Source: Eledone cirrhosa (taxonomy: Eukaryota). From it: a DNA stretch of 64,000 bases. Under the pieces are notes generated by a model that had not been told where the DNA came from, ran no database searches, and was given only the letters and a program-made list of their open reading frames with translations. Shown here piece after piece: positions 5,413 through 63,039 of this stretch. The position numbers and the translations under genes were made by a program. Each line of letters starts with the position of its first letter. Position 1 is the first letter of the stretch. The stretch covers positions 294,624,001 through 294,688,000 of the forward strand of contig OZ024740.1 in assembly GCA_964016885.1 (NCBI GenBank). The letters are read 5' to 3'.

Positions 5413-5450
<38 letters not shown>

Positions 5451-28164: not shown

Positions 28165-28850
28165 TACAGAGTGGGTAACCGACACTGCGCCAAGTTATAT
28201 ATAAATATACAAATTTTTAATATATAGACATGTAAATATGTCAGAAATACGAATTCTCTTGTAAACTGAAAATTTGATGAACACCTTTCATAGCGAAATC
28301 TATGCTACCAGATTTGAACTATTGTTCCTGCAGTTAGTGAAATAAATTATACGACCATGACACTCACCTCTGACCTCATAGATAAGCAATTGCCTTTGTA
28401 GATATCCGGCGTGATTTACTCCCCTTCTTTCGGGGACTCATGTTGCCAAACTGTCTGGAAGAATAGTTTTTTGGGGCCAACTGAAAATTGTCAACTAAAA
28501 CAGGATTCTCATAAATAGTCTGCTCCCTGCTGTCCAGCAGGGAGTCCAGTTCAGTTTGTTCCAACAACCAGAGCAATCTAGTTGCCAACAGATACTCACT
28601 CCAACCCGTTGGGTTAGCCCTTTTGGTCAGCAACGCTATCAGTGATACTCCCATCCGATTACAATAGATGTTAGTTCCATGCATCTTTTCAAACAACTAA
28701 CAGTATTTATGCAAAATCAATCACACAAATATAACACAATTTCACTTTGACTTTGTTGTTTTCCTGTGTTGTCAAAATAACTATCATTCTTGTTGAGTTT
28801 ACAGGAAAATTCGTATTTCTCACATATTTACATATCTAGATATTAAATAT
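28165..28850. mobile_element. TIR DNA-transposon relic (Tc1/mariner-like)
   Basis: ~50-bp imperfect inverted repeats at 28216-28268 and 28796-28848; left end begins TA|CAGAGTG. Confidence 0.6.
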
Positions 28851-29872
28851 GTATATATATTCATATACACATTGTTGCAAGTTGATGATTTTCCCCAATC
28901 ACATTGATATCAAGTGTACAAATGCCCAAGACACCACTAATTTTATATATTTTTATTGAACATGACATGATTTACTTCAAAATCATGTGTAGTAAATAAA
29001 CAATGGAAAGGTTTTTTAATATGGTACCATGTATAATTATGGTGTGTTGGTTGAATTTGTGTGATTGAATGTAGAATCTAAAATCGTGAGATAACTAACC
29101 TTGATTAAATGTTTGTATGCCTGGTCAGTTTGGAAGTGAATGAGAGTCTTTCTGTGGCAGAGTGAAGAGGCTGTCTGAACTAGCTGGGGTTAAGATTTCT
29201 CATGTTTATAATAGCTAGGTCCCCAGGAACATTAAACAGATGGCCTTTCCTTTTTCTGTTTTAATAAAGGCAGTAAATATAAATGGTGACGAAGCGCCTA
29301 AACAAAGGAATTTGTAATTAAGTTAGGCTGACTGAGGTTAAAGGTCAGTGTGTGTTGATATGTCACTATTTGAAAAAATGGAAACGTTCTCATTGTTAGA
29401 TTTTATTACAGTAGGCTGGTGATACAGTAAAAAAACAGCTAGTCCACCCTGAAAGGTGGAAATGCTGGTGCCACAATAAAATGTTCCACAACATGCTGTA
29501 AAGTGATTGGCATTAGGAAAAGCATCCAGCCATAGAAACCAAGCTCAAAATGAAACATGTTCAAGATGTGGACATTTGATTGATCTAGCTTCACCTGTCT
29601 AACATGCAAATATAGATAATAGATATTAAATAGTGATGATGATGTATTGTAACATCATTAGGTGTTTGTAAGGCTGTAGTTTACATATGATTAAGTTTAA
29701 TGTGATATGTTAAAATGTTAATGATTCTTATGTTATTGTGTAGTCCTCTGATCAAGCAATCCTATGGTACAGAGGTAGTCAGTCAAACAAGATCGACAGT
29801 CCAATTTTTATAGTTACAGTATTTCTATGCCTAGTTGAGAACCATACTGCACAATCTGACATGTAGTGGTCA

Positions 29873-31506: not shown

Positions 31507-32703
31507 TAACTTTTCTAGAACTTTTGGAGTGTGAAAAGGAGGGTGATGGGTTTGTATGATATGACTTCACTGTAGTGTCTATGGTGGTGGTTGTGATGTT
31601 GTATGTTCTGTAGTGTCTATGTTGGTGGTTGTGGTGGTGTTGTATGTACTGTAGTGCCTATGTTGGTGGTTGTGGTGGTGTTGTATGTACTGTAGTGTCT
31701 ACTTTGGTTTTTAAGCTATTACCTATGTTGTGACAATAATTTTAATGAAATTTACAGTCCAAGAGTTTCAACAAATTTTGAAAATAATCAATAATTGGAG
31801 TAATTTAGTTAAATAACTCATTAGTTTATAGCATTTCTATATATTTTAATAAATTTTGAAAATAATCAAGATCTGAGAGGGATTTAGTAACATAACCTAT
31901 ATTTTTCATTATTAAATTGATATTTAGAACATAACAAAAGTATTTTACATGAAATTATGGCAGGTTTTAATTTAAATAATATGGGAGATTTTTGTGTTAT
32001 AAAATGGGTTAGTATGAAAAGAGTTAGACCACTTGATAATGGTGCTACAGCAATATTATCATGCTAAATTCATTTCAAATGATGATGATCTTCAAGTTAA
32101 TTGAGTCGAAGATGTGCTTGCTAAACGCACCCAATTTGTTTTGGGAGGGGGTTTTATAAAAGGTTGCTTTTATGGATTTTCAAGTGAAGTACAGCTTGCA
32201 CACAGTAGTGTTCTCCATGGGCTTCTATTTAGAATATATAATATTATAGTTGTATTTTTGTAGGCATTGGTAATGTTATCGGAAAGAAGTTTGATATGTT
32301 TTTGGTTTCATTTGCAAATCTGTGGTTATAAAGGGAATGCCTGTTTTTGAAAATGTTGCTGTGGTGTCATAATCTTACCTTTTTTTTATCAGAATGATAA
32401 GATCAGATTCAAAGTTTTCAAAGTCCTTATTCTGAGGGAGAAATTTACATGGCCTAAAGCCAAACTTATTGTTTGCTAGTGTATTGGCAGAGTGTATAAA
32501 CAGAGAAAATATAAATATAACACAATCAATAATGTAGTAAAATTTGGTTATTTATTTGATGTTGAGTCTTCACTCTATTGCTGCTATGAATTTTGCCATT
32601 GTAATTACATTTGTCAGGAATGTTTGCAACAAATGAGATGGCAAAAGGAATTTTAGACTAGCAATTCAATGAAGTCTCATCTTCAAATAAATGAATATAT
32701 ATA

Positions 32704-33561
32704 CGAGGGCAATCCCAAAAGTAAGGTCTCCAAAGCGATGGGGACGCAGAGAAACTGTTCGTATGGCTGTTGTGATTGGTGCTTCCTTCACTGGGATGCT
32801 CAATCTTGGCTTGGCAGCTGTTGAGAATGGAGCTCCCGTTGAACGCTACCGCCAAGTGCGAAGTTCGCGCAGTTATTCGGTTTTTGAACGCAAAAGGCGT
32901 TGAACCGATTGAAATTCATCGGCAATTGACTGAAATGTATGGACAGTCGTGCATGGATGTCAAAAACGTTCGCAAGTGGTGTAGAGAGTTTACAGCCGGT
33001 CGTACTGAAATTCACGACGAACAAAAGAGCGGGAGACCGTCAATTTCCGACGAGACAGTCGCAAAGGTTGAGGAAAACATGCGCACACCTTTCGGTTAAA
33101 ATCCTGTGGATGGTGCTTCGGGAAACCTCAGGAACCAAAATGCAGAGAGAATCCATAGTGATCTCCCGATCTTTACGTATGTTTTCCTCAACCTTTGCGA
33201 TTGTCTCGTCGGAAATTGACGGTCTCAAGCTGTAAACTCTTTACACCACTTGTGAACGTTTTTGACATCCATGCATGACTGTCCATACACTTCCGTCAAT
33301 TGGGGATGAATTTCAATCGGTTCAATGCCTTTTGCGTTAAAAAAACGAATAACTGCGCGAACTTCGCACTTAGTGGTAGCGTTCAACGGGAGCTCCATTC
33401 TCAACGGCTGCCAAGCCAAGATTGAGCATCCCAGCGAAGCGCGTGCATGCTTGTTTGGGAGTGAAGGAAGCACCAATCACAACAGTGCTGCCAACAGCCG
33501 TACAAACATTTTCTTTTGTGTCCCCATCGCTTTGGAGACCTTACTTTTAGGATTGCCCTCG
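32704..33561. mobile_element. Foldback mariner derivative made of two inverted left-end fragments
   Basis: TIRs CGAGGGCAATCCYAAAAGTAAGGTCTCC flanked by TA; both arms encode the mariner N-terminal HTH (EVRAVIRF...EIH.QLTE.YGQSCM...KWC...GRPS); no catalytic domain. Confidence 0.9.
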
Positions 33562-33611
33562 TATATACATACACATATATATTCATACACACACACATAT
33601 ATATATATCAT

Positions 33612-35315
33612 TATCACCATTTTACGTCCATTCTTCCATGCTAGCATGGGTTAGACGAGTTGCCCTGTTGTGGGCAATGCTAGGTCAGGTGACCAAGCCT
33701 TGCTTATACAGAACTGATTTTGGCTTGGTTTCTACAGCTGGATGCCCTTCCTAACACTAACCTCATTTACAGTGAGTACACGATCATTTTACAGTGCGGA
33801 CTGGGAGCTTTTTGTCATGACCTCTTTACAGTGTGGGCTGGATGCTTTTTGTTGTGACACTTACAAGACCACTTTACAGTGGGAGAGTGGGGTGGTGCAT
33901 ACTGTATATATGCTTCAGGTTCAGCCTGTATTACTGCATAATGCCAGAGATCACGGTCCTGTGTCATTCGCTTTGAGAGGTGCAATTGGGCAAGGTTAGC
34001 TTTTATCACCTCATCCCAAGTCTTCCAACGACTTTGAGCGTTCTGCACCTTTTTATGCAGCTGTCATTCTTCATATGCATCACATGTCCATACCAACATA
34101 ATCTCCTCTCTTGCACAAATTTGATTCCTCTTATTTTGTTTATGCTTTGCCATTCACGTATATTACTATTACACATCCATCAGAGCATGCAAGCTTTCTT
34201 TCCAACCTACACAAGTCTTCTGCACACAGCGCCCATGTCTCACTACCATGCAACATTGCTGTTCATATGCACGCCTCATGCAGTCTGCCTTTCATTTTGA
34301 GGGAAAAGCTTTTGCAGCTAGCAGTGGTAGTAGCTCCCTGAACTTCTTCCCTTCCATTCTTACTCTGGCTACTGTACTTTCAGAACAACCAAGGTAGCAG
34401 AAGCTGTCTATTGTTTCTACAGATCCCTCCCTGAATTTGGTAGCGCTTGTTTCCTGTGGCTGTTTGATGCTTACTGTCCCGGTGCAACTGCTACATGTAA
34501 AGCCTACATTCTTCTCTAAACTTCCTGAGATCCTACTACATCTCTTGTGTACCTATAGTTTGCATATGGAGTAGAGGAGGATGGAGTTTCTACTTACACC
34601 TTTCCTACATACTGAGCAAGGCTATTTCCCCGAGGGGATCTGGGTTCTGTTTTCTCTTCTACGTTCTAGGACCTTAGTGTTTGTCAAGTTGACTTTAAGA
34701 GCCCTTCTTTCTAGGCCCAGCTTCGATGTTTGGAATTTCTTCTCTAGTTCCACCATAGATTTAGCTATGAGTGTGAGATCATCCGCATACAGAAATTCCC
34801 ATGGGTAGCCATTCTTAAACTCCTCTGTATAGCCTGCAAAACGATAATAAACAGGAAAGGGCTAAGAACAGAGCCCTGGCAGATGCCAACTTGTACACTA
34901 AATTCCTCGCTATAGTCATTGTTAATTCTAACTTTGCTGACTGCTCCTCTATACATGGCTTGTACAGCCTTCAGAAGCCATTCATCTACTTCTTGTTTTC
35001 TAAGAGCCCACCAGATTATGGCCCAAGGCACTCTGTCGAAAGTTTTCTGCAGAGCAACAAAATCCAGGCAGAGTGGCTTGCTTTCATGACTTGGTCCATC
35101 AGTTTTATACCTCTATCTAGTACATCTCCTTTACCCTTGTAACAGTTGACAATGATGTTCCTGCGCGAATCATTTGGTATGATGCTATCTAGTATTACTT
35201 GGTTTACAATATGTGTGGTTATGGTTTGCCCTACCGACCCAGATGATTTCAGCATCTTGGCAACTATTCCTGATGGACCAGTTGCTTTCCCAGCCTTCAT
35301 ATCCTTAATTGCCTT
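33612..35315 (-). mobile_element. Degenerate 5'-truncated RTE LINE (same family as 54656-58290)
   Basis: RT fragments KATGPSGI, QGSVLSP, LYADD-like; 3' UTR and tail; many frameshifts. Confidence 0.9.
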
Positions 35316-35998: not shown

Positions 35999-37231
35999 TT
36001 ACTGTCTATGTTCATTAATAAAATGTGAAGTAAAACTATAAACATCATGATAAATGTCACCACATAAATTGCACTGCCAAGGGTTTTCAGGGTCATGAAG
36101 TCCCATATGCATCACATAAAGTGCATTGTCAAAATAAAGAATATTACAATGTGGGCAAGTAAAACTTCGACTGTTGCCAATACATTTGTCTGTAACGTTT
36201 GAACTAGAAACTGTTGCTGCTGAAGAATGAGAGCTTGTTTCTGCAATAGTACTTGTTACTCCAATATCTTTGATAAAAGGTGGAGTTCTTGGAGTTGGTG
36301 ACTGACCACTTTCAAGGGATTGTGGAGGTGTTTGACGAATAGGGAGATGATCTTTAGAAAGCAAAACAGATGGTTGCAAAGAAAAATATGTATAAGAAGA
36401 TTTGGCGAGCCCTGTAACTGAGATGTGCTCTGGAACTGTACTACTCTGTGGAGCAGCAGATACAAGGGACCTATTTGCTTGCTCCTGAAAATCAGAAACA
36501 GACTGTTTATTTAATGTTACATTAGAAAGATTTAACATGCTTGTGTTATGAAAAGAATCCTGAACTGATAAACTTTCATCAATAATATAGCAATCATCTT
36601 CATTGGTCTCAGATTCCATTTTTACAGAAGGAACATTTTTAGAATATTGGACAGCTTCATTAGAATAATTTGTATTTGTGGCAGTCAATCGAGTGTCGGG
36701 TTCATTAACTCCATATTGATTAGTTGCAAATCGTAAAGAGGAATTATCAGCTGATGGTTGGTTAGGGAGTGGTATGAATCCAGACTGGAAAACTTTATGC
36801 TTAAAATGCATATGCTTTTTTAGGTCATATTTTCTTTTTGCGGCATACTCACAAAGATCACAGATGAAAGGACGGACATCGGAATGAACTACGCAATGAC
36901 TTACAATTTTGCTACGGAATGGAGAAGAAAAAGAACAGCTCTCACAGTGAAACAACCTACGTTTGTCATCGTCCAATCCACTTCCCTGAGTACTGTTGTT
37001 TCCTTTATCAATAGTTGTGTCGTCACTTATATCTGATACATTTCCAAGAAATGTTTGTGGTTCATTATGTACTTGATTGTGATGTATCAAATCTGAGTGA
37101 AACTCAGTAGTGAATGAACACTGATCACATTGGAAATGTTTCTCAACATGTGAGTTTTCCATAGAACTAGCAGAATCGTTCATGATGATAGAATCAACAT
37201 ATGAGATGGATATCAAACCTGCTCCAACAAC
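35999..37231 (-). CDS. Ikaros/Hunchback/Pegasus-like C2H2 zinc-finger protein, terminal coding exon (probable start ATG 37183, 394 aa)
   Basis: Three N-terminal C2H2 fingers and a C-terminal pair FTCPHCNILYFDNALYVMHMGLH-DPENPWQCNLCG...FTSHFINEH, typical of the Ikaros/Hunchback dimerisation fingers; acceptor TTTATTTCCACAG ending at 37232. Confidence 0.9.
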   Translation of the reverse strand, partial: VVGAGLISISYVDSIIMNDSASSMENSHVEKHFQCDQCSFTTEFHSDLIHHNQVHNEPQTFLGNVSDISDDTTIDKGNNSTQGSGLDDDKRRLFHCESCSFSSPFRSKIVSHCVVHSDVRPFICDLCEYAAKRKYDLKKHMHFKHKVFQSGFIPLPNQPSADNSSLRFATNQYGVNEPDTRLTATNTNYSNEAVQYSKNVPSVKMESETNEDDCYIIDESLSVQDSFHNTSMLNLSNVTLNKQSVSDFQEQANRSLVSAAPQSSTVPEHISVTGLAKSSYTYFSLQPSVLLSKDHLPIRQTPPQSLESGQSPTPRTPPFIKDIGVTSTIAETSSHSSAATVSSSNVTDKCIGNSRSFTCPHCNILYFDNALYVMHMGLHDPENPWQCNLCGDIYHDVYSFTSHFINEHRQ

Positions 37232-38307: not shown

Positions 38308-39601
38308 CTTTATCTATCCACTTCTCAGTTAACAGAATACCTTTTGCTCCTACACAGAAGAGCTTACTTATATGCTGTGTGAAATCAAGTTGAGGCTCTC
38401 CTCTATCTCACCTCTTGCACTCAGCTAGTCAACTCCACAATTTCACCCGACATACCTCTCATTATGCCAACATTGACAGTGGAAGCTCTGAAATGCATTC
38501 ATTACCTTATGGGAAAAGAGTATCCTGTGTTTTGGAGTCCACTTTCTGTAAAGACACATACACTAACATCAGAGTAACATTAAGGCTTAGCTATACATCC
38601 CATGTTCTCTAAATTAATACTTACTTAATACATCTGAATCTGAAAATGAGTTCTAACTTCAAAAACGTTTGTCTTACCTGTAATTAGCACATGTTAAATG
38701 CTATATGTTAAGGCAGCCTCCTTCATACTATAACTGTGGACTGAAATCTGACTTGTATTAAACACTCTGCTTGCAATAATGCACTTCATATAATTGATGT
38801 CATAGAATAACGAGAGCTTTCTCTGATATAGTAAAAAGGCAATGTGTCATCATCAACTTTGCTGATATTCTTGTTAGATTGCTGTGACAGGTTTTTCATG
38901 AACGAAGTGAATTCTGATTGGTTAAAAATAACACTGGCAAAGTTGTTTCATAGCATTAATGATTGAGGAATTTGAGTTGATCTGGAAAGGACTTTCCAAT
39001 TCCTTAGCCACATTGCTGCAACATCAAATCATTCTTATACTTTTGTATAGTTTGATTCCACTCAAAGAATCATCATGATTAAATTAATTGTGCCATGGAA
39101 GAGTGATAGTAAGTAAGTATGTGAATGAAAGCTGATTAACTACAAGAAGTTGAAGGAGGTATGCAAAATCTGAAGGCAGAAATTGATTGTACTTCTTTCA
39201 GAAGTGGGCTGCTGTAGTTTTGTTGCATCATCAATATCACTGCTCACTCTTGTGGTCCTCACCTGAAAGTAATGGAAGAATATTAACTACTTACTGCAAC
39301 TGGAAGAAAAGCTTACTTTATATAATATGTAATATAATATACATATATATGTGGTTGGCATTAGGAAGGGCATTCAGCCATAAAAACCAATCCAGAAATG
39401 GTTCTGTGTGAGCAAGACACGGTCATCTGATCTGACTTTTCTCATAATGGGACAATCCATCTAATCCATGCTAGCATGGAAAATGGATGTTAAATGGTAA
39501 TGATATATATATATATATATATATAATTGGTGTTGGATGCTTAAAGTGTTCGTATGTGGTAGGCCGTATGAGCACTCGATGCCCTCGTAGAGCAGAGTAT
39601 G

Positions 39602-39849
39602 ATACCACAGAAAAAAGAGAATTAGTGTTGTGACGAAAGGAATTTATTGGACATATTACAATTGTTTCTCGGGCACATTTTAGGAAAATCTGCTTCGTAG
39701 AATCGAGACCTATCCGAGGACCGCATGTTTTCAGAGTCAGGTTTGATCACCACATCGATCGTGCCTCGAGCTGGTCGCCCAAGAAACAATTGTAATATGG
39801 CCAATACATTTCTTTTGTTGCAACACTGATTCACTTTTTTCTGTGATAC
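39602..39849. mobile_element. MITE-like element with ~73-bp imperfect inverted arms
   Basis: CACAGAAAAAAG...CATATTACAATTGTTTCT is mirrored by AGAAACAATTGTAATATG...CTTTTTTCTGTG. Confidence 0.8.
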
Positions 39850-39927
39850 CTATTATTTTTATCTAAAGACATTTTCTTTCCAATTCCATCCCGCCCGTCC
39901 CCTTAATCTATTTTATTTCTCATTCTT

Positions 39928-39963
39928 TCTTCTGATGAAGGACTAACATCCGAAACGTTAAGA
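39928..39963 (+). ncRNA. Minimal type I hammerhead ribozyme motif in a Penelope-like pLTR relic
   Basis: UCUU-CUGAUGA-A-GGA(CUAACA)UCC-GAA-ACGU-U/AAGA: intact core, palindromic stem III, GUU triplet. Confidence 0.82.
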
Positions 39964-42900
39964 TCCTCTTCCTGCTATATCAAGCGTTAACCTAATATAT
40001 ACCTTCCATATACTGTACCGATTGTGTTGTTATTTCTGTTTACCTTTTACATACATATATATATATATAGTAGTAGTTTTATTGGTAGCTCAGTCTTATT
40101 TATCTACAACATCCAATGCTGCTCAAAGGAAACCATGTTTGAATTTTACGTCTAAGTGTCCTAGCTGCATATTTAGGAGAGTCAAAGAAGTTGAAAGAAA
40201 GAGATAATAGATTTAGTGAGTGTAGAGTGGGATGAAGAATAGTTGAGATAGGAGTGGGAATCAATGGGCTTACTGTTGTTGTTTAGCCTTAGGTGAGCAC
40301 TGATCAAGATCTATGGTTAAAGGTATTCCAGGCATGACTATCACATCTTTTTGTATATCTAGGACTAAACTATTCAATATAACTGGCATTTTTAAAGACA
40401 TTAGAGTGTGATCTGAGGGATCAAATTTTGCTATTTGTAGCACATCGAGCAACTGTATAGATGTTCTCTGGACAGGTAAAGGGCACAGTTTCTTACCACA
40501 ACAAATTCCAACTCACAGTTTTTGCAACTATATGTAAAAACCCTCCCACATATCTAAATACTTCTACAACACCAAGTCTAGGAAAACTTTCAAAAATAGA
40601 ACATGTAACACAAAAATAGTAGTAGCACCAACAGCATTATTAGCCGTAAACACTATACTGAGATGCTCAGTATCAGTAAGTACAGTGGAGCACCAGTTAT
40701 CATGTTTGAATAGAGTTCACCTTCTTCACCATATTTGAGGCTACCACCAGACTGTAACACACACATGTAGAATCAATAGCTGCATGCCACAATGTGCAGA
40801 GAGAACTATACATCACATCTAGATGTTTGGTTGACAGCCAATATGTCATAGGTCAGTGCAATCAGGGCTGACCTGTGGCTAGCATGGCCCTGATCTCTGT
40901 GTGATGGAAGATGTGGGACATCTTATATATATATATGTGTGTTCATGTCAAGTAACCAATAGTAAAACAACCTCTTTGTCATTTTTCAGCTTGTCCATTC
41001 CAGTATGTTGGCTTAACAGAGAAATCTGATGGTTTGATGGTTGAAAGCATCATATCAGTTTATTGTGGAGCACAAAGAATGTGTTAGTGCACCTAAAATA
41101 TTCTTGTCCAATGCAGCCAAAGAGGTTCATCAATTAATGTCTATTTTCTATACTTGCACGAGTTAGACAGGATGTCATGTTAGGCTTGACAGGTCAGGTG
41201 ATCACGACTTGCTCATAGGATTCATTTTTGATTTGGTTTTCTATGGTTGGAAACTTTTCCTAATGCCAATCTCTTTACAGTATGTACAGGGAGCTTATTT
41301 TGTGGCACCGACCACTACCATGTTATAGAGTGGACTGGGTGCTTTTTGTCATGGCACACACATATCATCATCATCACCGTTTAATGTTTATTTTCCATGC
41401 TTCCATATGTTAGATGGGCTGTCACATTACAAGGCAATACAAATCTATAAATGTTTTCACATACAGTCCCATTCATTTAACTTCTGTATTTTGGATATTA
41501 ATGGCTTCACAGATTCAGTCCCACTCATTCAGCCTCAAAATTTGGATATCAATGGCCTCAAGTTATATTTTTACATATTACTCAAAGACTGAGTGAGTTC
41601 CAACATTATTTTTACTTGGTTTAAAGATATAAGTTCCTTATATCTAAGAGTAAAACAAAGTCTCATTAATATTTATAGAAAGCAAGTCATCTCTCTCTGT
41701 TTGAATTTTAACCCTACATTGCTCTATATATAATATGTATTTTTGTGGTAAAGGCTTTATCTCACATAATATAAAATCTATGAGATTTTGATATTATTTA
41801 TTCTGAGAACAATATTTTAACATCAGTATGAGCAGCTAGTTACGGCTGGTTTGAACAGAAAGAGTTGAGAGAATTATGGCCGGATTTGGCTGGTTTAAAT
41901 GTTAAACAGTTAAACCACTAAAATCTGATAAAAAAAATAATGATCAGCTTAGTTAGTCAATTACGCCAAGTATATCTCTCCTTCAATTTTCAAGCCTTGT
42001 TCCCTTCCATTATAAATTTATAGAGGGCAGTGGATTGGCAGTATCGGTAGAGGGTCGGACGCCATGCTTTCCAGCATAGTTATGTCCCTTTACGGTCTGA
42101 GTTCAAATCCCACCGAGGTTAACTTTGCCTTTCATCTTTACGGGGTCGATAAAATAAAGTACCAGTAATGCAGTGGGTAATTGCTGGCCTTGTGTCAAAA
42201 GTAGAAACAATTATAAATTTATAGTCTTGTAAGAAAACAATATTCAAAGTAAATGATCATAACCCAGTATCAAATCTAGGCTACAATCATTTCATGTCAG
42301 TTAGCTACCAATTTAGGAAAATCATGAAAGTCACAATACTATTTCTGCAGCCTTAAAACATGTCATTGTACTTGGTCAATTGAAATAAATATTTATTTCA
42401 ATTTTAATCTTTAGTGAGGGGACTTGAAAAGCAAAAGAATTCTAGAGATGCAGTTTTTTTAAGTGAATGTTTGGAAGACAACTGTTAATTAATGATTGTG
42501 AAAGTCTCAGAAGCCGGTGTGAAGCTTAAAGTTTGCTGGTTACATAGAATTTGGTTTCACTGTCAGCATACAAGTCAGAAGTATCGCATCAGCCTGTTAT
42601 ATCTAGCTCAACATTTCAATTTATAAAAAGAAAAAAGGGTGGTGGATTGGCAGAATTATTAGAGTGTCAGACAAAATGCTTTGGGCTACCTGTTCTGGCT
42701 CTTTACATTCTAAATTCAAATCTTACCAAGGTCAACTATGCCTTTTGTCCTTCCAGAGGTGATAAAATAAAGTAGCAGTAAAGTACTGAAGTTGACTTAA
42801 TTTGAGGACTTTGTGCTTAAATTAGAAATCAATTCATAACATGAGAAGTTATGACATACTATGGGCATGTAGTTAGAATGTCTCAGGAAAGAAGCGCATG

Positions 42901-45257
42901 GACAGATTTTATAGGTAAAAACCAACCGACAGGAGAGCCAGGGGTAACCCCAAGCAAGATGGCTAGATAACATCCATGAACTTGGCTGGTCACGCTTGGG
43001 GATCCAGCCAGATCAGTTAGATATGGTTGCTTTTGACAGGACACGATGGAAGGGGTGTTTAAGGACTCTGCTTTCTCAACCCTCTCAGGAATAAGTGGAC
43101 GAAGAAGTTATGACAAAGTTTATGGTATGAATGATGAGAATGAAATAACAGTCAAAGCAAACTTTAACTAGTCTATTTAGAAACGAGTGTCTATTTAGAT
43201 ACGAGTGTCTGTAATTAGAATAATGAGAATGGTGAATGAACGACACTTTATATTAGTTGAAGCATTATAAGAGCTATAAAGGAATTTATAAAGAGCAATA
43301 GAAAAGGAATTACTATAAAATATCAATATTTTAATAATTTACAGAAATAAATATTAACTCTTAACATCCTGTAATGATTTAGCAGAAAATATTCTAAAAC
43401 AGGTAATTTAAATGTTTAGAGTATCTTTACTAGTGGACAAATCGTTGTGAAAATTTGTAGTAATTGAGTAAAGACTTCAATTTTTAATGTGATGCAGTCA
43501 CATTGCTGTTTTGTCGTACTTTTTAAAGAATGTTTTTCTAATGCGGTACATGATGTTAAGAGTTAAATACAGTTTAATATTTTTCATATTCGACTGTCCT
43601 TTTTTTGCTGACCTATGGTATAAACGTTCCATCCATACCACCCATTCTATTTTCAGACAATGTATCCTTCTTTTTTAAAGGTGTTTTGAAGGGAATTCAG
43701 CTATTTCCAGCTGGCTAGGAAACCTAGAGGGTGGCTTGTTTTGTTAATTCGCCCTATTTCTGCTTTCACTAACTCACACCTCGTATCAAAAAACATCCTG
43801 AATGCGATCTTTCTATCTTTTTTGTTTTTCAAACACATTATATCTAGGATCACATTATCTAATGTGCTTCTTTTCTTTCTTTCTTTTAAAAAAAAAAAAG
43901 ACGGTATGGTGTAATGTAACTGCTATTTCTAGCCGGTCGAGTGGTCATGTAGAGACTTTCTCGTCGGTTTGTTTTGTTTAGTCTCAGATCGGTCTAGGGC
44001 CGGATTAAATCATTTTGAAGCTCTTAACACTTAAAAGATTATGATGCCCCTCGCCCATATATAAAGTCTGTAAAGAATTGTTTCAGGAGCGACAAATACA
44101 TTTCTTTTCAATAAAATGGTGCGTCTCTTCCCTTCATACACCAAACATGTGTTTATTTTGTTTAATGGTTAATACAGTCATGCTTGATTATGCAAGTCTA
44201 TGATCAAAGACATTCCAGTCGTGACCACCACGTCTTTATTCTCCAAGTAGTGGATTACATTATCCAATGTATCCCTTATAAAGTGTTTACGGTGTGGTTT
44301 GAAGGAGATTTGTCAACTATTTCTTACGGATCGAGTCACCACATAGTTTCCCTCAGAAGCTCGTGTTGTTTTGTGCAGCAACAAGAGTAATTATTAAAGA
44401 TGCTCGAGTTATAAATTTATTTTGACTATACTGAAAGTTGCAACACCCTTTAATTTGCCTTATATTACCAAATTAATTTACAACACCTGAATAAACCATT
44501 AATATTTAACTAAAATTATTTATATATAAAGGGGCTGTTGTCAGCGTGAAATCACTTTCATGAAAATGTTTGGTGAAATATATCAAAACATAATCAACTA
44601 AAAGTTTAAAATACTTTACCTGCAGTGTGGAAAACTAAGGAAAATCTAGATAATAAAATATTATGATATAAATAGATAATAAAATGATGAGAAATAATTA
44701 AGTTTGGTAAATGGATCAAGGAACCGGAACTTGTAAATATTGAGGTGTCGCTGTTGTCAACGGTTTTACAGGAAAATGTGACTCGAAATAAAAACAATCA
44801 AAAACAAGCAAGACATGGAAATTGTACATTTTTGGAAAACAGAAAGTTTTATATAATCAATTCATATATTTTTCAGGATTTTTTGTCTACAGATACATAA
44901 CTTAAAAAACTAAAAACTAATACGATTAAATTTTCTAAATATACCAAAAAAAATTCTCGTCATTGAAAACATCCGCACAAGAGTTTCCTCCCCTGAATTG
45001 CTAAAACAAAATAAATCTAGTTTCACTTTATGTAATCTTTTTCTATTGTACTATATAATTTTCTCTACTGTAATGTGTAATCTTTCTCTACTATACCATG
45101 TAATCTTTTTCTACTATACTATAACATCTTTCTCTACTATACTATGTAATCTTTCTCTACTGTACTATGAACAAATTATTTAGGATAAAAATCATATCAA
45201 GTCAAATATAAAACACACAAAAGTTACATTTTTAAAAAAGTGGTTTCTTGAATAAAG

Positions 45258-45320
<63 letters not shown>

Positions 45321-45453
45321 CAATGAGTTATTTAATTTGTTGGTTATTCAACAAAATTAGTTTATAACAGATTAGAAGCACTCTACAATTTTCTTCTTGA
45401 TTATAATATCAAAAGTATTGATAAATGGAAACTATCTTTATAAAACCATATTT

Positions 45454-45513
45454 ATTTTATTATATATATTTCAAGGGTACCAACATTTTTGGTACGTTCT
45501 CATCAGATAAAAT
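45454..45513 (-). ncRNA. Hammerhead motif, same family as 62761-62822, decayed stem II
   Basis: AUUUUAU-CUGAUGA-GAACGUACC(...)GGUACCCUU-GAA-AUAUAUAU-A/AUAAAAU. Confidence 0.7.
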
Positions 45514-45655
45514 ATAAAGTTGTTTTACAGATAGTGACATATCCAAAACAAAAACTTATCGTTTTAAGTTCTGTTTGAATAGTTTGAATATATATATATA
45601 TATATATATATACAAAAAATATAAAGCAATCAAATTTTTGTTTAATGCATTTAAT

Positions 45656-45703
45656 TGCTGACGATCGTTTCTTCCAGACAACTGGTCTGGAATCGTCGGA
45701 GCA
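45656..45703 (-). ncRNA. Hammerhead-like motif with U4C core variant
   Basis: UGCU-CCGACGA-UUCCAGAC(CAGUU)GUCUGGAA-GAA-ACGAUCGU-C/AGCA: perfect stems, palindromic stem III, GUC triplet. Confidence 0.72.
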
Positions 45704-45821
45704 TACACAATGTTTAAACAAGTAATTACATTCTTAGTCTTTAGAACAGTCATTAAGATACATTATTATTAACAGTGTCAGTGACATCATATTGAAAAGC
45801 AAGAATAAAAAAATGATACTA

Positions 45822-45957
45822 CAGTGAAAAGATAGCAAAATATTGAAAGGTGTTATGCATGCTATTATTAATTTTCTTTGTGTAATAAGCTTGATATACT
45901 CACTTTTAGTAACACCCTCTTTATAACACGTTTCAATATTTTGCTATCTTTTCACTG
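45822..45957. mobile_element. 136-bp Tc1-type MITE
   Basis: TA|CAGTGAAAAGATAGCAAAATATTGAAA...TTTCAATATTTTGCTATCTTTTCACTG|TA. Confidence 0.8.
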
Positions 45958-46275
45958 TAATTAAATGCAATAAACAGAAATTTGATTGTTTAATATTTTG
46001 TATTTCTGCTCTGTAATACATTTGATAATCTACATTGAGCTAATTTTCTTACTGGTAATTAGGTAATACAAAATATTACCCTTTCTTATTTATAATTGTA
46101 TACAGATTATATATATAAGTATAAATACTATTATTATGAGGTTAACTTTGCCTTTCATCCTTACGGGGTCGATAAAATAAAGTACTGGGATGATTGCTGG
46201 CCTTGTGCCAAAAGTAGAAACAATTATTATTATTATTATTATTATTAAATATATATATATATGGCAGGAAGGTAT

Positions 46276-46318
46276 ACGTTGCTGACGATAGCTAATAAGC
46301 TTGAAACTAGTACAGCGT
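46276..46318 (+). ncRNA. Minimal type I hammerhead motif
   Basis: ACGUUG-CUGACGA-U-AGCU(AAUA)AGCU-U-GAA-ACUAGU-A/CAGCGU: 6-bp stem I, palindromic stem III, GUA triplet, U-U mismatch at the base of stem II. Confidence 0.7.
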
Positions 46319-46937
46319 TCCTTTGTCCGTGTTGAACAAATGAGCAACAATGGCTTAATTCGGGATGTTTGTTTACAAACACACCGAGCATTATAATAAA
46401 TGTTCGGTGAATCCATACGTACATATATGTATGTGTGCATGTATGTATATATATATACATACTACTGTACGTCTGTATACATGTATGTATGTACGTATAC
46501 ATACTTATATTTAAGTAACAGCCGTACTAAGAGTGAGAAATGAAATTTTGTTTCATTTTTTTATAAATATATATATATATAACAAAGAAGGTGTGGTAAG
46601 ATACCAGGTGGACCATAACGCACCAGAGTACTTCTTTCATACATGTATGTGTGTGTGTGTAATCTGAGTTTTTCGATTTGTTGGCATTTATGCAAACAAG
46701 CCTCTTTTCAAGCTATGTCAGGACCCCGTCATTCTTGCTCTTGTATTGGCATGTAAACAGAACTGCAGACACTAATGTTTCTGGGTGATTATCCTTCATC
46801 AGTACAGTATACTGCTTACCTGCCAACTGTCAGAGCTAGTGAAAATATATGATATTTTCTGAAATATACAGTGACTGACTGGCCTGATCAGATCTGCATA
46901 TTAGCAGACCCACTGATCAGCCAGATTTGTTAGTTAT

Positions 46938-46978
<41 letters not shown>

Positions 46979-47708
46979 TAAAACAACAACAGAAGACCGG
47001 ACTGGAAAATTTCCTAATCTGGCCTTCTGTTATTTTAATGGATACTCCAATCCTGCACTAGCCACAGGATACCACATCTACAATGGATGATTTGCATAAT
47101 GTTGAGTGCTTTAATTAATTTATTGCATCATTGTTTACCAACCTGAACCACCAGTTCTACTCATTAGTAAACAGCCTAACATAAATGGTATAAATATATA
47201 TATCTAGGGCAGGTAAAATTCCTGAGATCCATGGACGAGTTCTCTCCAGCAGTCTCTGTCCTTCGTCATTGCTGCTATGTCCTACAGCTTCCAGAGATCA
47301 GTGTCTGTCCTTAGGGCATCAACATGTCATCCTTGGTCTCACTCTTCCAGTGTGTCCGTGTAGGGACTCCCACAGGACCGCTGAGTGCAGTGTCAACTCT
47401 GAATGTTGGTGAGCATGTCCAGCTAACCTCAATCTCTCCAGTGTCACTTTCAGGCCTTTTCTCGTTTTAATTTTTTCATTGTCCATATATTTTGTTGAAT
47501 GTATGTGTGTCTTTCAAACTGATATGTATTAAACACTTATCAAACTGTCATGTATTAAACCTTTCTAAGAATGATATGTTCTAACTCCTTATAAAACTGT
47601 TATGTATTAAACTCTTATAAAACTGATATGCATTAAACCCTTATAAAACTGATATCTATCAAACCCTTATGTATTAAACCTTTATAAAACTTATATGTAT
47701 TAAACCCT

Positions 47709-49128
47709 GTGAACTATTGTCCAGTCAGTCTTACTAGTTGCATTGCCAAACTGATGGAATCCTGTGTCAGAGAAACACTTTGGAACTCTCATAGTCTTAT
47801 CCGGCCCTCGCAATTTGGATTTATCCCCAACTCCAGCTGCTGTGATCAACTTATCGAGTTTCTTGAAGACATCACCCGGATCACTGATGGCGGTTCATGG
47901 GTGGATGTTGTTTACCTTGACTTTGCGAAAGCTTTCAATTCTGTGCCACACAAAAGGCTTATGGCAAAACTCTCTACAATGGGTGTGAAGGATGATCTTT
48001 TTAACTGGTTGAAGTCCTTCATTCTCAGTCGAAGAGAGGTAGTCACGGTTCTGGGACAACATTCTTCACCATATGAGATGTCATCTGGTGTACCACAGGG
48101 ATCTGTTCTTGGCCCCCTTTTGTTTGTGGCATATATTAATGACATAGATGCCAACTTAAAGAATGCCACAGTACTAAAGTATGCAGATGACATCAAGCTG
48201 TACCTTGAGATAAAAAGGACAGATCCTGAACACTATAGATCTTGCTTGCAGTCTGACCTGGACACAATGCAACAATGGATCACAGACTGGCAACTCAAGC
48301 TAGCTGTGGACAAGTGCACCACCATGCATTTTGGGAGTAAAAACCCAGCGTCCACATACTCCCTCCACAGCACTAATATCAAGAAGTCTTTTTGCGAACG
48401 TGACCTGGGCATTATGGTCAGCAGCGATTTGCGTTGGACGAAGCACGTCTCTAAAATTGTCAAGAGGGCCGAGGGTGTCTTAGCATCACTCAGCAAGACC
48501 TTTGTTATCTGCTCTCCAGCTATCTATTTAAGGCTGTACATGGCTATGGTGCGGCCACACTTAGAATTTGCATCACCAGTCTGGAACCCCTATCTTGCTC
48601 AGAACATTGACCGCCTGGAAACTGTTCAGAGACATGCAACCAAGCGAATACCCTCCATCAGGCATCTACCATACTCTGAACACCTTGCTTCCCTGGGCAT
48701 GGATACATTGAAGCTCCAACGCCTGGCAACTGACTTGGTAAACACCCACAAAATTGTTAACCATCTTGCCAACAACAACCCTGAGTACCTTTTTGATTTC
48801 CATGTGTCTAACACACGTGGGCATGCCCACAAAGTCAGAAAACAGCACAGTTCCCATGACTTTTGGAAACATTTTTTCACGCTCAGAGTTGCTAAAGGAT
48901 GGAACAAACTACCTGCATCAGTTGTTAGCTGTTGAGACACTGCATCCTTTAAAACCTCCATTCTTCCCGAGATTCACCAACATTACACCTAATGTTCCCC
49001 CTCTATACACATACACACATGTATATCATGACTCATACACTATTCACTTCCCTGACATTTGTATATTATTCTATGTACTATACCTTTGAGCACTTTAAAC
49101 AATAATTTCATTATATTATTATTATTAT
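47709..49128 (+). mobile_element. 5'-truncated CR1/L2-group LINE; 408-aa RT reading frame, 3' UTR, (ATT)n tail
   Basis: PVSLTS, QFGF, YLDFAKAF, GVPQGSVLGP, YADD, ERDLG motifs. Confidence 0.95.
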
Positions 49129-54655: not shown

Positions 54656-57600
54656 CATCATCATCATCACCGTTTTACGTCCGTTCTTCCACGCTAGCAT
54701 GGGTTAGATGGGTTGTCTTGTGGGCAGTGTCCGGTCGGCTGACCTTGTCTTGCTCATACGGGAGCTGATTCTGGCTTGATTTCTACAGCTGGATGCCCTT
54801 CCTAACACCAACCTCATTTACAGTGAGTGCTGGGTGCTTTTTTCCGTGGCGCCTACACGTCCACTTTACAGTGTGGGCTGGGTGCTTTTTTGCCGTGGCA
54901 CCTCCACGACCACTTTGCAGTGGGAGGGTGTGGGGGCATATTGTCTATATGCTTCAGCTTCGGCTTGTACCCGTGGGGGTCGGGTCTTCTGTATTACTGC
55001 GAGGTGTAATTGGGTAAGGTCGGCTTTTATCACCTCATCCCAGGTCTTCTTGGGTCTCCTCACTCCGCGGTTTCCATCGACTTATAGTGCTCTGCACCTT
55101 TTTATGCAGCTGTCATCCTTCATACACATCACATGTCCATACCAACGTAACCGCCTCTCCTGCACACAGCATTTGCTTCCTCTTATGCTCAGTCTCTCTC
55201 TCAATTCATTTATGCTTTGCTGTTCGCGTATATTACTATTACACATCCATTGGAGCATGCAGGCTTCGTTTCTTTCTAATCTACGCAAGTCTTCCACAGA
55301 CAGCACCCAGGTCTCACTACCATGTAACATTGCTGTTCGTGTACGCGCATCATACAGTCTGCCTTTCATTTTGAGGGAAAAACCTTTTGCAGCTAGCAGT
55401 GGCAGTAGGTCCCTGAACTTCTTCCACCCCGTTCTTACCCTGGTTATTGTACTTTCTGAACACCCACCTCCGCTGTTAATTCAGTCACCTAGGTAACAGA
55501 AGCTGTCTACTGTTTCTACAGAGCCCTCCCAGAGTTTAGTGGTACTTGTTTCCTGTGGCTGTTTGCTGTCCCAGCACAGCTGCTAAATGTGAAGCCTACC
55601 TGAGATCCCGCTACATCTCTTGTGTACCCATTGTTTGCATTCGGGGCAGAAAATGGAGTTCCTACCTACACCTTTCCTACATACTGAGCAAGGCCATTTC
55701 CCTGAGGGGAACTGGGTTCTGTTTTCTCGTCTACTTACAAGGACCTTAGTCTTTGTCAGGTTGACTTTGAGACCCTTTCTTTCTAGTCCCTGCTTCCAAG
55801 TTTGGAATTTCTTCTCTAGTTCTACCATAGATTCAGCTATAAGTGCGAGGTCATCTGCATACAGGAGTTCCCATGGGCATCTGGTCTTAAACTCCTCCGT
55901 TATTGCCTGCAGGACTATGATGAACAGGAGAGGGCTAAGAACAGAGCCCTGGTGGACACCGACCTGTATGCTAAATTCCTCCCTATGTTCATTGCTAATC
56001 CTAACTTTGCTGACTGCTCCCCTATACATGGCTTGTACAGCTTTCACAAGCCATTCATCTACTCCTAGTTTTCTAAGAGCCCACCAGATTATAGCACGGA
56101 GAACTCTGTCGAAGGCTTTCTCGAGATCGACGAATGCCAGGTAGAGTGGCTTACTTTTAGCTAGGTACTTTTCCTGTAACTGCCTCACAAGGAAGAGGGC
56201 ATCAGTGGTGCCTCTTCCTGGTACCAACCCAAATTGCATCTCATCTAGTTTCACCCAGACCCTAATCAACTGTGTTATAACTCTTTCTGTTACTTTTATG
56301 ACCTGGTCCATCAGCTTTATACCTCTATAGTTTCCTCTATCTAGTGCATCACCTTTACCTTTGTAGCAGTTGACAATGATGCTACTGCACCAATCCTTTG
56401 GTATGACACCTTCTAGTATTACCTGGTTAACAATACGTGTGGTTATGGTGTGGCCTACCGACCCAGATGCCTTCAGCATCTCAGCAGCTATACCCGATGG
56501 ACTGGTTGCTTTCCCAGTCTTCATATATTTGATTGCCTTACTTACTACACTGCTGGCCCCTCTGTAGGGTCTACTTGGGGTGGGGGTCTCTTCTTCCCAT
56601 GCATTCTCCTCATTTAGTAATCTATCATAATGGCTCTTCCACGCATCTTTCTTCTCAGCACTTGTGAGGGCAAGCTCAAGCCCACCTTTATTATTCTGGA
56701 TACACTTCTCTCCAATGACATCACAATTCTTTGCCACACTGCCTCGCAATCTTGAACACCTCCTGTTTCTCGTCCTCACGTTGCAAAACATGCTTGAATT
56801 TTCTATCCTCTGCTTCCCTCCTAGCTAAGTATACTTGCCGCCTAGCTTCGCTCCTGGTCTCTATGTAATGTACCCTGCTTCCCCCGTTCTTCCATTCTTT
56901 CCATGCCTGTCTCTTGGCCTTAACTGCCTCATCTACCTTATTGTTCCACCACCAAGTCACTCACCTCCTGCCTGTGGTCTTACTCCAGCCACAGATGTCA
57001 TCCGTCGCCTTTCTACATTGATGCATTGAATGCCTCTATCTGTTCTTCTTTACTGTTATCGGCGTTGAGTAAAATATCTTTAAATCTGTAACTGGCTGAG
57101 GGGTCTTTCAGCTTCCAGATCTTTCTTCTCCAGGCTGGCTTCCGTTTCCAGGTTCGTCTAGTTCTGACCGTGAGGTCGCTGACAACTAAGCTATGTTGGG
57201 AGGTACATTCCTCATTAGGGAAGGCTTTTGTGTTTACGACCATCCATCTGTCACGTCCTCTGATGAGGATAAAATCTATCTGACTAGATTGTTCCCCTGA
57301 TCTATAGGTGATCAGGTGGTTATTGGGTTTTTTTAAGTTTGTGTTACATATCGACATGTCATTGGCGTCGCAGAATTCTAGAAGCCTGAATCCTTCTTCA
57401 TTTCTTGTGCCAACTCCATGGACTCTATAGAAGCCGTCACGGTGTTTACCTATGTGTCCGTTAAAATCTCCTGCAATGATTAGGAAGTCATTGTCGTTTG
57501 TTAGAGCAGTAGTGCGCATTAGGGACTCGTAAAACCTATCCTTAAGTTCGTCTGGCAACCCCGATTGGGGTGTGTAAGCTGGTATTATTGTGGTAATTGT

Positions 57601-58290
57601 TTTATTCAGGACTAGTCTGAGTTTAACGATTCTTGCATTCATCCTGTTCACTGAGATTACCTTATCTACCCACACCACCCATCCCATCGTCATTTCCTAC
57701 CCAGAAAAATTTGTAGCACTGACTTTTTCCTACAAGGACTCTAGCAGACTCTCCTCTCCATCTAGTCTCTTGCACACAGCATACATCAATTTCCTTCCGC
57801 TCTAGCATCTCTACGATTTCTCCTGCTCTTCCTTTCATTGTGCTTACATTGATGGTACCAACTCGGAGTTTTGGGCATTTGTCAACATTCGTGGGAAAGG
57901 GTCGATTTTTGCAGGGGTGTGTGTATGCTTCTTGTCTCTGAATTGAAGCTTCACATGGGTGCTTGGTAGCTAGCGGATTCATATTCATTTTCATTTATTA
58001 ATTTGGGGTTGCTCCATTTATTCTCAGCTCATCCATACATAATGGTAGAATTCAGGGCTAGAAGAACAGTGGTGGTGGTAATAATGGCAGGGTGTGTTGG
58101 GGCTGGGATGGGTGAGGAGAGAGGTAGGTAGTAATGGCAGAGTTTGTTGGGGTTGGTAATGAGTTGGGGTTGGTAATGAGTAGGGGGGGGGGCATGCTGA
58201 GGTTTGATTGGTTGAATAGGCTATGGTGGTATGAGGGGGTGGGCAGGAGGGAAATTGTGAGATAGGTAGCCATCATGGCCTATAGCATCA
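54656..58290 (-). mobile_element. Near full-length RTE-clade LINE (APE endonuclease, RT, PHD-like Cys/His finger), frameshifted
   Basis: VCCVQETRW, GDFNGHIG, QIDFIL (APE); QFG, FVDLEKAFD, QGSVLSP, LLYADD (RT); RRLRWYGHV; 3' UTR and (GAT)n tail. The 5' limit is approximate. Confidence 0.93.
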
Positions 58291-59560: not shown

Positions 59561-62261
59561 TCGCTCCCATTCTGAATTGTCATTTAGGAATTTTTTCATC
59601 ATTATACCTTTACAGCGGTAATTATTAATAAAAGTTATTAAAGTAAATTACTTTATTTTCTTTTTGTGAAATGTTAATTCAAGGTGTTCTTATATATTGG
59701 TATAAGTATAATGGTATTTCATATGATATATATAGTTAGGTATATTGGTTTTTATATATATAGAGATTGTAAATTGGCAGAGTTATTTGAACATTGGATC
59801 GAATGCTTTGTGGTATTCATTCTGGTTGTTTGTGTTCTCTGAGTTTAAAACCCGCCTAGGTTAACTCTGCCTTTCATCATTTCGAGGCCGATGAAAAAAA
59901 GTACCAGTAGAGTATTGACATCAATTTTTCCTCTATATCTTTTTCTCACTTCCTCTCTCCTGCTCTGAAAGAAATTGGCTGTGTTCAGACTTGGAGAGGA
60001 GATGGACTCCACCAAGTTTAAATGCCTAAGACATTGTATGTCACTACAGTACCCCTAAAATTCAATCAGGACTTAAGGGTCCATACATACATATATATAT
60101 ACACAAGGTACATTATTTCTTTTCTCAGTTTAGATTCCTTCCCTGACTAACATTCCTCGACTGGGAGCCAAGTTTGCAAATCATTGTTGTAGAATGTCTA
60201 ATGTACATTTTATTGTCAATCTAACAAACCTATCTAAGAAATGATAGTGCTCAATACATTGTATACCACTAGGGTGGTGAATTGGTAGAGCATTGGATAA
60301 AATGCCATTGTGGTATTTGTTCTGGCTTTTTACATTCTTAGTTCAAATCCTTTTAAGGTCAACTTTGCTTTTCATCCTTCTGTGGTTGATAAAATAAAGT
60401 ACCAGTTAAATACTGGGGAAGATTTAATCAACTTTGCCCTTCCTCCAATTTTGCAGCCCTTATGCCTAAATTAGAAATGAATATGTTGTTTACAACTTAG
60501 TAATGGTGCACATGACTTAAGTAACATAGAGCCCGATGAAGACTGATTCACAATCCTCTCTAGCAGAACACATGCTCTGCTCTTAACGTCTTGTAAAGTA
60601 AACCTAACAATTAAATAACGAAAGTATGGTGCAGTGAGGAGGGAGTGGCAGATACTACACCCCAGTCAAAGTGGTATATCTCAGCTGCACCCTGTGGATA
60701 AAATGCTGAAGGCAATGACATGGAGCACTAGGGAGATTATTATGTCTTTGACAAAGATGAAGAGTCCTCTCATGGCACCAGAACTAGGGAGGTTATCATG
60801 TCTTTGACAAAGCTAAAAAGTCCCCTCATGCACCAGGTATACTTTATCGTGGCACCAGCACCAGGTATACTTTATCGTGGCACCAGCACTAGGGAAGTTA
60901 TGTCTTTGTCAAAGCTGAAAAGTCATCCTGACTACCCAAAATAAAAGAACATATTTTCCTCAGTTTCAGATGAAATAATAAACATCAACCGATTTTATTT
61001 CATGTTAACATATTTATTGACATTATTAACACATGTATTTAGAATTGTTTTTGATGGAAACAAACAAAATCTCAGTTCCCCATTGAGAGAAAAACAAACA
61101 AACAATAGAACAAATAAAATTTTAAACAGTAATTTAACATGTTTCATTAAAGATGTAGACAAACACATTCAATGGAAAATACTTAAGATTTTAGAAATAT
61201 CACAGTTGGTTCAGGTTGCTAAAACAATAAAGATCTAAAGTATTAGGAAAGAAATAATGATGATAGTAACCTGGGATAAGAATAATTAAAATTGATATAT
61301 ATATATCTATTTTTATATATGTATGTGTGTGTACATGCGTGTATGTGTGTACATATATATATATGTATGTGTGTATATGTGTATATATATATATATGTGT
61401 GTGTGTATGTAAAAGAGAGAAGGAGCAGAGGTACATAGCTATTTCAGTAGTAAAATGATATTCACAACATGGAATGACTATTACATATCTATGAAAGAAT
61501 AATTAAGGTTGTTTATAGCTTTAACCAAATTTTTTCTTACACTACGATATGGAATGAAACAATTTTTTTTTTTAACAACTGTTGATTTATGAAGTATTGG
61601 GAATGTTTGAAATTTAAAATGTGAGTATCCCAACACAGGAATGGCTGTAATATGGTCAATCACTATAAATAATAGTTTAGAAAATCGAGTAAAGTAACCC
61701 TGGCAACAGAAAAGAGTGGACAGTAGAACCTGTGAGGTATCGAACCATGTATTGGAGAGACACGGTGCTGCATTCCTCAGAGGCACCTCTATCCATTTTT
61801 TCCATCTCCAGGGGTATTTTCTCAACTATTATTTATAGCGAGCAACTATATTAAAGTAATTTCTGCATTGGGATGCCCACATTTCAAATATCAATGTATG
61901 CTTTTTCTTTTTATTACTAAAACAGGATCTGCCAAAAGCAATTTTAAAACATTTTTGTAATAGTCGCAATTTAAACCTTGGAAGTTCACAAATAAGTAGG
62001 TAAATGTAGATAATATTAATCTATTGCAATTAATTAACTATTAATATAGATATAAAACGAAAACTTTAATGCTTACATTCTAAACTGTATTGCCAAAAAT
62101 ATTTAAAAATATTTTCCTATAAGAATTGAAAAAAACATTTGTAAAATAACATTATTATCAAATATTTTCTGATTAAACAATTTGTCATGACAATATGAGT
62201 CTTTAAAAAAAACGAACTTAATTATAACGTGTGTGTGTGTGCATGCATATATTATATATAT

Positions 62262-62870
62262 ATATTATTCAAAATATGAAGACGTTGACATAATCAAATT
62301 ATATATATTTCAGAGGTACTGTGCTGTTTTTTCAGTACGTCCTCATCAGATAAAATATATGAATTGATGTATGACATACTTCAACTGTCTTGATGGTTCA
62401 ATTCCAGTATTGGCAGTGATTTATTACAACAAATCTCAATATTTATATACACAAATAATAACATGATAAACTTAAATATGATGAAGAAGAAGATGTGGAG
62501 CGAGATATAAGTATAAGGAGAGGGTGAGTATGAGAAAATGTAAGAAGAAATAAATAAATAAATTTATTTATTTCTTCTTACATTTTCTCATACTCACCCC
62601 CTCCTTATATCTCGCTCCACATCCTCTTCTTCATCATATTTAAGTTTATCATGTTATTATTTGTGATATATAAATATTGAGATTTGTTGTAATAAATCAC
62701 TGCCAATACTGGAATTGAACCATCAAGACAGTTGAAGTATGTCATACATCAATTCATATATTTTATCTGATGAGGACGTACTGAAAAAACAGCACAGTAC
62801 CTCTGAAATATATATAATAAAACATTTTGATTATGTGAACGTCTTCATTTATTAATATTTTGAATAATAT
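62262..62870. mobile_element. ~610-bp foldback palindrome with hammerhead motif; probable Penelope-like inverted pLTR insertion
   Basis: Arms mirror around AA at 62560-62561 with a few small indels. Confidence 0.85.
62761..62822 (+). ncRNA. Type I hammerhead motif (damaged mirror copy at ~62296-62356, - strand)
   Basis: UUUUAU-CUGAUGA-GGACGUACUG(11 nt)CAGUACCUCU-GAA-AUAUAUAU-A/AUAAAA. Confidence 0.75.
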
Positions 62871-63039
62871 TAATAACTCCAGAAAACTTCTTTGTAGAGT
62901 GATTTTAATCTATTGTAAAACTATATTCATTGAGTAATCAATGAACCATATTAATCTTTGGTTATATATTATATATATATATATATATACAAACATGTAC
63001 TTCATCATTAGAGAAAAGCAGATGTATGATGATGATGAC

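Follow-up and report, generated by a model that had tools for sequence, protein, structure and literature searches.

Four type I hammerhead motifs in (TA)n-bordered, multi-copy repeat pieces of the octopus Eledone cirrhosa

The locus and its hammerhead motifs

The window analyzed here is a stretch of 64,000 nucleotides of the Eledone cirrhosa genome (assembly GCA_964016885.1, contig OZ024740.1, positions 294,624,001 to 294,688,000), and all coordinates are counted from its first letter. It carries a zinc-finger gene whose protein is 89% identical to a Pegasus-like protein of Octopus vulgaris, together with two other host genes and several kinds of repeats. The bZIP gene is presumably C/EBP-like, and we take the LINE remnants to be CR1-like and RTE-like.

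903-2699, minisatellite (29 bp x62)
2812-3367, minisatellite (43 bp x13)
5003-7518 (+), XPG/5'-3' exonuclease exons
8517-8640, 25095-25365, 28196-28867 and 61607-61894, terminal-inverted-repeat elements, probably MITEs, without a hammerhead
9160-9699, 33607-35315, 47688-49083 (+) and 54660-57696 (-), LINE remnants with reverse transcriptase (RT) and endonuclease domains
24064-26712 (-), bZIP gene
32692-33573, palindrome in which the 5' half of a mariner-type transposon (Mos1 HTH) occurs twice in inverted orientation
36002-37183 (-), Pegasus/Ikaros-like zinc-finger gene, single exon, 394 aa

The cluster of hammerhead motifs lies in an AT-rich part of the window (GC of 27% in 44-46 kb) and consists of four elements, named A to D, with the 3' piece of a SINE among them. 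A B-box-like motif among the loose read ends suggests that this SINE is tRNA-derived.

45263-45318, (TA)28 tract at the 3' end of element A
45319-45588 (-), element A, non-coding repeat piece of ~270 bp, homologous to a pair at 62 kb
45453-45514 (-), hammerhead A, stem I of 8 bp, long stem II with an internal loop, predicted cut after 45461
45589-45612, (TA)12 tract between elements A and B
45616-45856 (-), element B, minus arm of a head-to-head pair, ending ~45 nt past the predicted cut site
45656-45703 (-), hammerhead B, stem I of 4 bp, stem II of 8 bp, predicted cut after 45660
45857-46107 (+), element B, plus arm, running to (TA)5 at 46108
46138-46247 (+), SINE 3' piece, very abundant, with an (ATT)n tail
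46262-46415 (+), element C, 5'-truncated exactly at the (TA)6 tract 46250-46261, 3' limit approximate
46276-46318 (+), hammerhead C, helix I of 6 bp with internal loop and distal stem, predicted cut after 46312
46662-46930 (-), element D, ~270 bp, between (TA)9(TG)n and (TG)n tracts, homologous to C
46762-46808 (-), hammerhead D, helix I of 6 bp with a long distal stem, predicted cut after 46768

A descriptor scan found all four type I hammerhead motifs within 1.4 kb, each matching, to within a few bases, the position given by an earlier, sequence-only reading of this DNA. The exact type I core (CUGANGA ... GAAA ... UH, helix I open) is present in A, C and D, and B has the variant CCGACGA, with C at core position 4. 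Helix III is palindromic in 4/4 motifs: AUAUAUAU in A, with the predicted cut after an A, ACGAUCGU in B, ACUAGU in C, and in D the 10-nt ACAUUAGUGU, with one G-U pair and the cut triplet GUC. The pairs at positions 10.1/11.1 are G.U in A, U-A in B, U.U in C (below a stem II of 4 bp) and A.A in D. An extra base after position 9 and a G10.1-C11.1 pair occur in none of the four, and both are present in two further elements of the window, E and F (see below). Motif D, previously regarded as degenerate, turned out to be more complete than that, since its stem I has 6 bp and its palindrome 10 nt; the sole damaged part is stem II, which is broken by two private lesions.

These are real type I hammerhead motifs beyond chance, and their ability to cleave is predicted. 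A descriptor fitting all four, defined post hoc with the motifs already in view, gave 4 matches in the region against 0 in 3000 dinucleotide shuffles, and 5 matches over the whole window, compared with 0 in 100 block shuffles. The motif count is therefore far above that of dinucleotide-shuffled sequence, the comparison that the earlier reading had proposed. Even when the palindrome requirement was dropped, the shuffled region gave a mean of 0.0017 matches (maximum of 1), while two of the four motifs pass a stricter descriptor with a stem II of at least 4 bp close to the core. The Rfam search returned no hammerhead at gathering score; below threshold it matched B to Hammerhead_1 (18.5 bits, threshold of 34) and C to HH9 (16.8 bits, threshold of 52), with nothing for A or D. 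Rfam miRNA matches at 46411-46516 were rejected as microsatellite artefacts.

A relaxed scan, for which shuffles give ~2 matches per window and 0.11 at a score of at least 12, produced 12 real matches, 7 of which reach that score. Those at 35451, 49258, 25485 and 22021 were dropped as chance, and one at 33043, inside a mariner transposase remnant and devoid of a palindrome, was set aside. The motifs do cluster locally, but they are not restricted to the cluster, since copies of family A and the elements E and F lie elsewhere in the window. The motifs do not open an ORF.

20376-20896, element E, head-to-head pair with hammerheads starting at 20700 (+) and 20576 (-)
39526-40055 (+), probable element F, between (TA)11 and (TA)7
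39928-39963 (+), minimal hammerhead of F, its score alone within the shuffle range
62262-62965, head-to-head pair of family A, with (TA)n on both sides
62298-62359 (-) and 62761-62822 (+), family A hammerheads in this pair, the minus copy with a damaged stem I 3' arm

Repeat families and covariation

Four public sequencing runs, three from organism A and one from organism B, were aligned to the window at 80% likeness. Each motif sits in a multi-copy repeat piece of 150 to 500 bp that is bordered by microsatellite. Organism A had divergent contigs or reads over all four elements, whereas in organism B coverage was deep over elements C and D and slight over A and B. The summed depth over A and C reaches ~10^6, which is not a copy number. 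The short, unique-looking stretch 46481-46541, between C and D, also has very deep coverage and is taken as the tail of family C or else as a repeat of high abundance.

Family A offers the closest set of copies for comparison. The two arms of the 62 kb pair are identical at 284/287 positions, and between the 45 kb and the 62.8 kb copies 34/35 positions of the core, stem I and stem III are identical, compared with 114/154 in the flank (Fisher P=0.0013). Stem II of the 45 kb copy differs from that of the 62 kb pair by two double compensatory changes, and a group of loose read ends behind 45482 (10,383 reads) looks like a third stem II version of the family. The arms of E are identical at all 257 aligned bases and share a central A.A mismatch in stem III; this insertion looks recent. 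The hammerhead of F has the extra base after position 9, a G-C closing pair and an ACGU palindrome, and the element contains an internal inverted repeat at 39600-39850.

Element B is a damaged pair. An internal deletion of 164 nt in its plus arm takes out the whole hammerhead; GT-AG splicing was rejected as its cause, as the boundaries do not fit, and a 3-nt microhomology is present. Over the minus arm, six of the eight contig pieces listed stop at 45843-45856. In both the B pair (45616-46108) and the 62 kb pair, one arm ends ~40 nt and the other ~150 nt past the cut site.

Elements C and D had been listed as unrelated along with the others, yet they are, by their alignment and fold, diverged homologues. 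Their flanks align in register around the motif, and only 4/20000 random anchors score equally in the anchored two-flank test. The downstream flanks on their own show no significant alignment (785/3000), so the homology is based on this test together with the fold in common, i.e., a 6-bp helix I, a 3x1 internal loop and a distal stem in both. Of the six stem I pairs, three show double changes, one a compatible change and two are unchanged, and the palindrome has grown symmetrically from 6 to 10 nt. Relative to D, element C is truncated, with the homology extending to the (TA)6 tract and stopping there. The cluster thus contains three lineages, and C and D are two families within one of them; the claim that the motifs are unrelated fails for this pair. 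A comparison of A and D for a possible common 3' end gave divided results, with 1/3000 shuffles scoring as high for the 45 kb copy but 786/3000 for the 62 kb copy. Core conservation and stem covariation, which the earlier reading had named as a check, are thus seen among the copies of A and between C and D, in few sequences.

Variants within the read data were evaluated from 40 of the 392 variant rows. Taken singly, the 14 common variants listed comprise 5 that stabilise the fold, 5 that are neutral and 4 that destabilise it, so that a general repair of the folds by majority variants was not upheld (P=0.075). Both majority substitutions listed inside stem II restore pairing, at 45497 in A (-3.6 kcal/mol) and at 46792 in D (-4.1 kcal/mol). 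The extra base of D at 46787 is absent from 13263/17101 reads in one run. In C, a stem I pair would be lost through the variant 46315 G>T unless a second change compensates, and this variant stays below half in one run.

(TA)n borders and the origin of the cluster

The motifs are separated by (TA)n tracts, as first noticed from the letters alone, and 7 of the 32 tracts of (TA)>=5 (at least five repeats) in the window fall in 45200-47000. Such a tract lies within 200 nt downstream of all 9/9 cut sites, compared with 9.5% of positions in this window. The (TA) tract of E is internal and has to be discounted; outside the cluster, both independent events (A at 62 kb and F) have a downstream tract. 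Four of the seven insertion events fall inside 1362 nt (P of about 0.001 under uniform placement, a post hoc value for a window chosen for its cluster). The element boundaries are themselves partly set by the (TA)n tracts.

The anatomy of the insertions resembles that published for Penelope-like elements (PLEs): B, E and the 62 kb copies of A are head-to-head inverted pairs, 5' truncation occurs, and the 3' ends lie 40 to 150 nt past the cut. Head-to-head inverted, 5'-truncated copies and a bias toward microsatellites are described for PLEs by Craig et al. (2021, PMC8557442), and the work of Frangieh et al. (2024, PMC11167929) describes reverse transcription starting 111 to 118 nt into the ORF, a cut 26 nt into the ORF and AT-rich targets. 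As far as these two accounts go, the inverted copies, truncations, (TA)n or AT-rich targets and 3' ends shortly past the hammerhead are the same here. PLEs are also described as inserting adjacent to existing copies (PMC6765202). The clade involved could be Neptune or another; the Naiads, the named (TA)n-biased clade of PMC8557442, are described there without canonical hammerheads, unlike these motifs.

The most probable explanation, to which we give a probability of roughly 0.8, is that A to D are dead 3' end-pieces of several Penelope-type families, inserted independently in (TA)n, where by end-pieces we mean either pseudo-LTR remnants or solo retrozyme-like units. The PLE reverse transcriptase/GIY-YIG protein would nick AT-rich or (TA)n DNA, cDNA synthesis would start 40 to 150 nt downstream of the hammerhead, and early termination would leave no more than the end with the hammerhead, frequently joined by a second, inverted copy. 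Each insertion would leave (TA)n on both sides as targets for later ones, and a pile-up would result from these regenerated targets. Two like ribozymes of an active parent would be able to pair through the palindromic helix III and cleave as a dimer. The copies A to D are probably inert, given their lesions and the lack of a same-strand cognate partner. Membership in the PLEs is a matter of inference here, as none of the 300/300 stop-free frames of at least 55 aa in the window matched a PLE reverse transcriptase or GIY-YIG domain; the RT matches found are full LINE-type frames elsewhere. The hotspot for PLE or retrozyme insertion in (TA)n proposed by the sequence-only reading is thus supported as a pile-up, whereas the idea of four unrelated families is not.

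We consider it unlikely that the (TA)n tracts are instead element tails or decay products and the cluster simply a repeat-tolerant, AT-rich stretch. Tails would fit the two-sided (TA)n of the head-to-head pairs, whose outer ends are both 3' ends, and the SINE piece within the cluster and the low GC content are in keeping with such a stretch. However, the unpaired copies A, C, D and F also have (TA)n directly at the 5' junction, which favours (TA)n as target over tail, and the C/D homology reaches the (TA)6 tract and ends there.

The cluster does lie upstream of the zinc-finger gene, as had been pointed out (8.3 to 9.6 kb from the start codon), but we saw no evidence of a link between them. That it was selected as a multi-ribozyme regulatory unit for this gene is highly improbable: A, B and D are on the strand of the gene, yet stem II of D is broken, the second copy of B has no ribozyme, none of the motifs has a same-strand cognate partner, similar motifs occur elsewhere in the window and, as a weak point given their shortness, no listed contig spans the cluster in organism B.

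Retrozymes, dimers and known hammerhead systems

Palindromic, dimer-type hammerheads are described in the pseudo-LTRs of PLEs, with many families per genome that are mostly solo (Cervera & De la Pena 2014, PMC4209133). In the aspects covered by the available text of that paper, those motifs resemble ours in their type I fold, palindromic helix III, divergent and mostly solo families and opposite-strand pairs, some of them 100 to 700 bp apart; their long helix II and short helix I are matched by B. The motifs of the cluster differ in their longer palindromes (6 to 10 nt), in having neither the G10.1-C11.1 pair nor the single extra base after position 9, and in that no ORF is attached in this window. 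The missing pair, which is termed highly conserved in PLE minimal hammerheads (PMC4209133), argues against the PLE reading, as do the canonical helix sizes of C and D (see below).

Some or all of the families, C and D above all, might be true non-LTR retrozymes, a possible reading but not the one we favour. Tandem arrays located elsewhere would then produce circular RNAs, and the copies found here would be solo monomers and not pieces cut from coding elements. Canonical hammerheads have been tied to tandem retrozymes, in a mollusc among other animals, and it is retrozymes, not PLEs, with which their helix sizes are associated (Cervera & de la Pena 2020, PMC7229834). The animal non-LTR retrozymes described so far are non-coding units of 170 to 400 nt; like C and D, they have canonical type I hammerheads and pair strongly with themselves, and solo monomers are common among them, as here. 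No tandem array is present in our window.

Folding separates the elements in this respect. The ~270-nt unit of D is strongly self-paired (z of -4.9, 0/200 shuffles as stable), A and C fold moderately well (3/200 and 4/200), and B does not fold better than its shuffles (34/200). The combination of canonical helices and a self-paired unit of 170 to 400 nt is hence found in D, more weakly in C and A, and not in B. The 6-bp helix I of C and D with their common 3x1 internal loop and distal stem, together with a 4-bp helix II, points in the same direction, and so do the U.U at the helix II base of C, described for an axolotl retrozyme (PMC7229834), the great summed depth over A and C and a read group that joins 46496 back to 46295 (83 reads, 1 start). 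This joint, however, has a single start and one side in low-complexity DNA, there is no tandem copy in the window, the helix sizes of B are of the PLE type, and head-to-head pairs are a hallmark of PLEs. The retrozyme reading also overlaps with the preferred one of Penelope-type end-pieces, since retrozymes have been proposed to be mobilised by PLEs and are considered derivatives of PLE pseudo-LTRs (Li et al. 2026, bioRxiv 10.64898/2026.07.22.740005).

It had also been suggested that the different palindromes act as family-specific dimerisation codes. In the double-hammerhead dimer model, which comes from established work on hammerheads and is described in PMC4209133, stems I and III both form between the partners. 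Cognate registers of our motifs have 4 to 8 stem I and 6 to 10 stem III pairs, whereas the cross-family registers among A to D reach at most 2 and 4. These counts predict dimers specific to each family, but the palindrome by itself does not account for that specificity, which need not be a product of selection. Because dimers across families fail in stem I as well as in stem III, the supposed code reduces to the ordinary complementarity of homodimers, and a palindromic helix III had already been published. Long palindromes and family specificity may also have been described already (Lunse et al. 2017, and paper supplements). It is doubtful that C and D are very high-copy cephalopod retrozymes in which the palindrome was lengthened from 6 to 10 nt along with compensatory rewiring of stem I. 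If so, they would be sister families insulated from trans cleavage of each other, and octopus A to F would form a natural series for family-specific ribozyme dimerisation.

Data from other cephalopods provide some context. The giant squid genome has 235 Hammerhead_1 matches (PMC6962438), and 31 recently active PLE families are reported from O. vulgaris (PMC13282606), with no mention of ribozymes in the available text of the latter. A literature search, largely of open papers, on hammerheads, retrozymes and heterodimers in octopus and other cephalopods returned nothing on these families. Metagenome scans with families A and D as targets gave 0 loci; a viral scan with a C-type pattern gave 2 loci, and the one inspected was taken as a chance match without stem II or stem I.

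The cluster is an octopod addition to an already described class and is explained by known biology. Retroelements that seek microsatellites build local pile-ups, which would account for an apparent "ribozyme cluster" without any function. The motifs nevertheless make up a natural set of hammerhead variants, with long palindromes, a non-canonical helix II base and a C4 core, and the homologous C/D pair is suited to a direct comparison of homodimer and heterodimer cleavage. As to the C4 of motif B (window 45696-45699), no majority variant appears there among the rows listed, and it may be a feature of the family.
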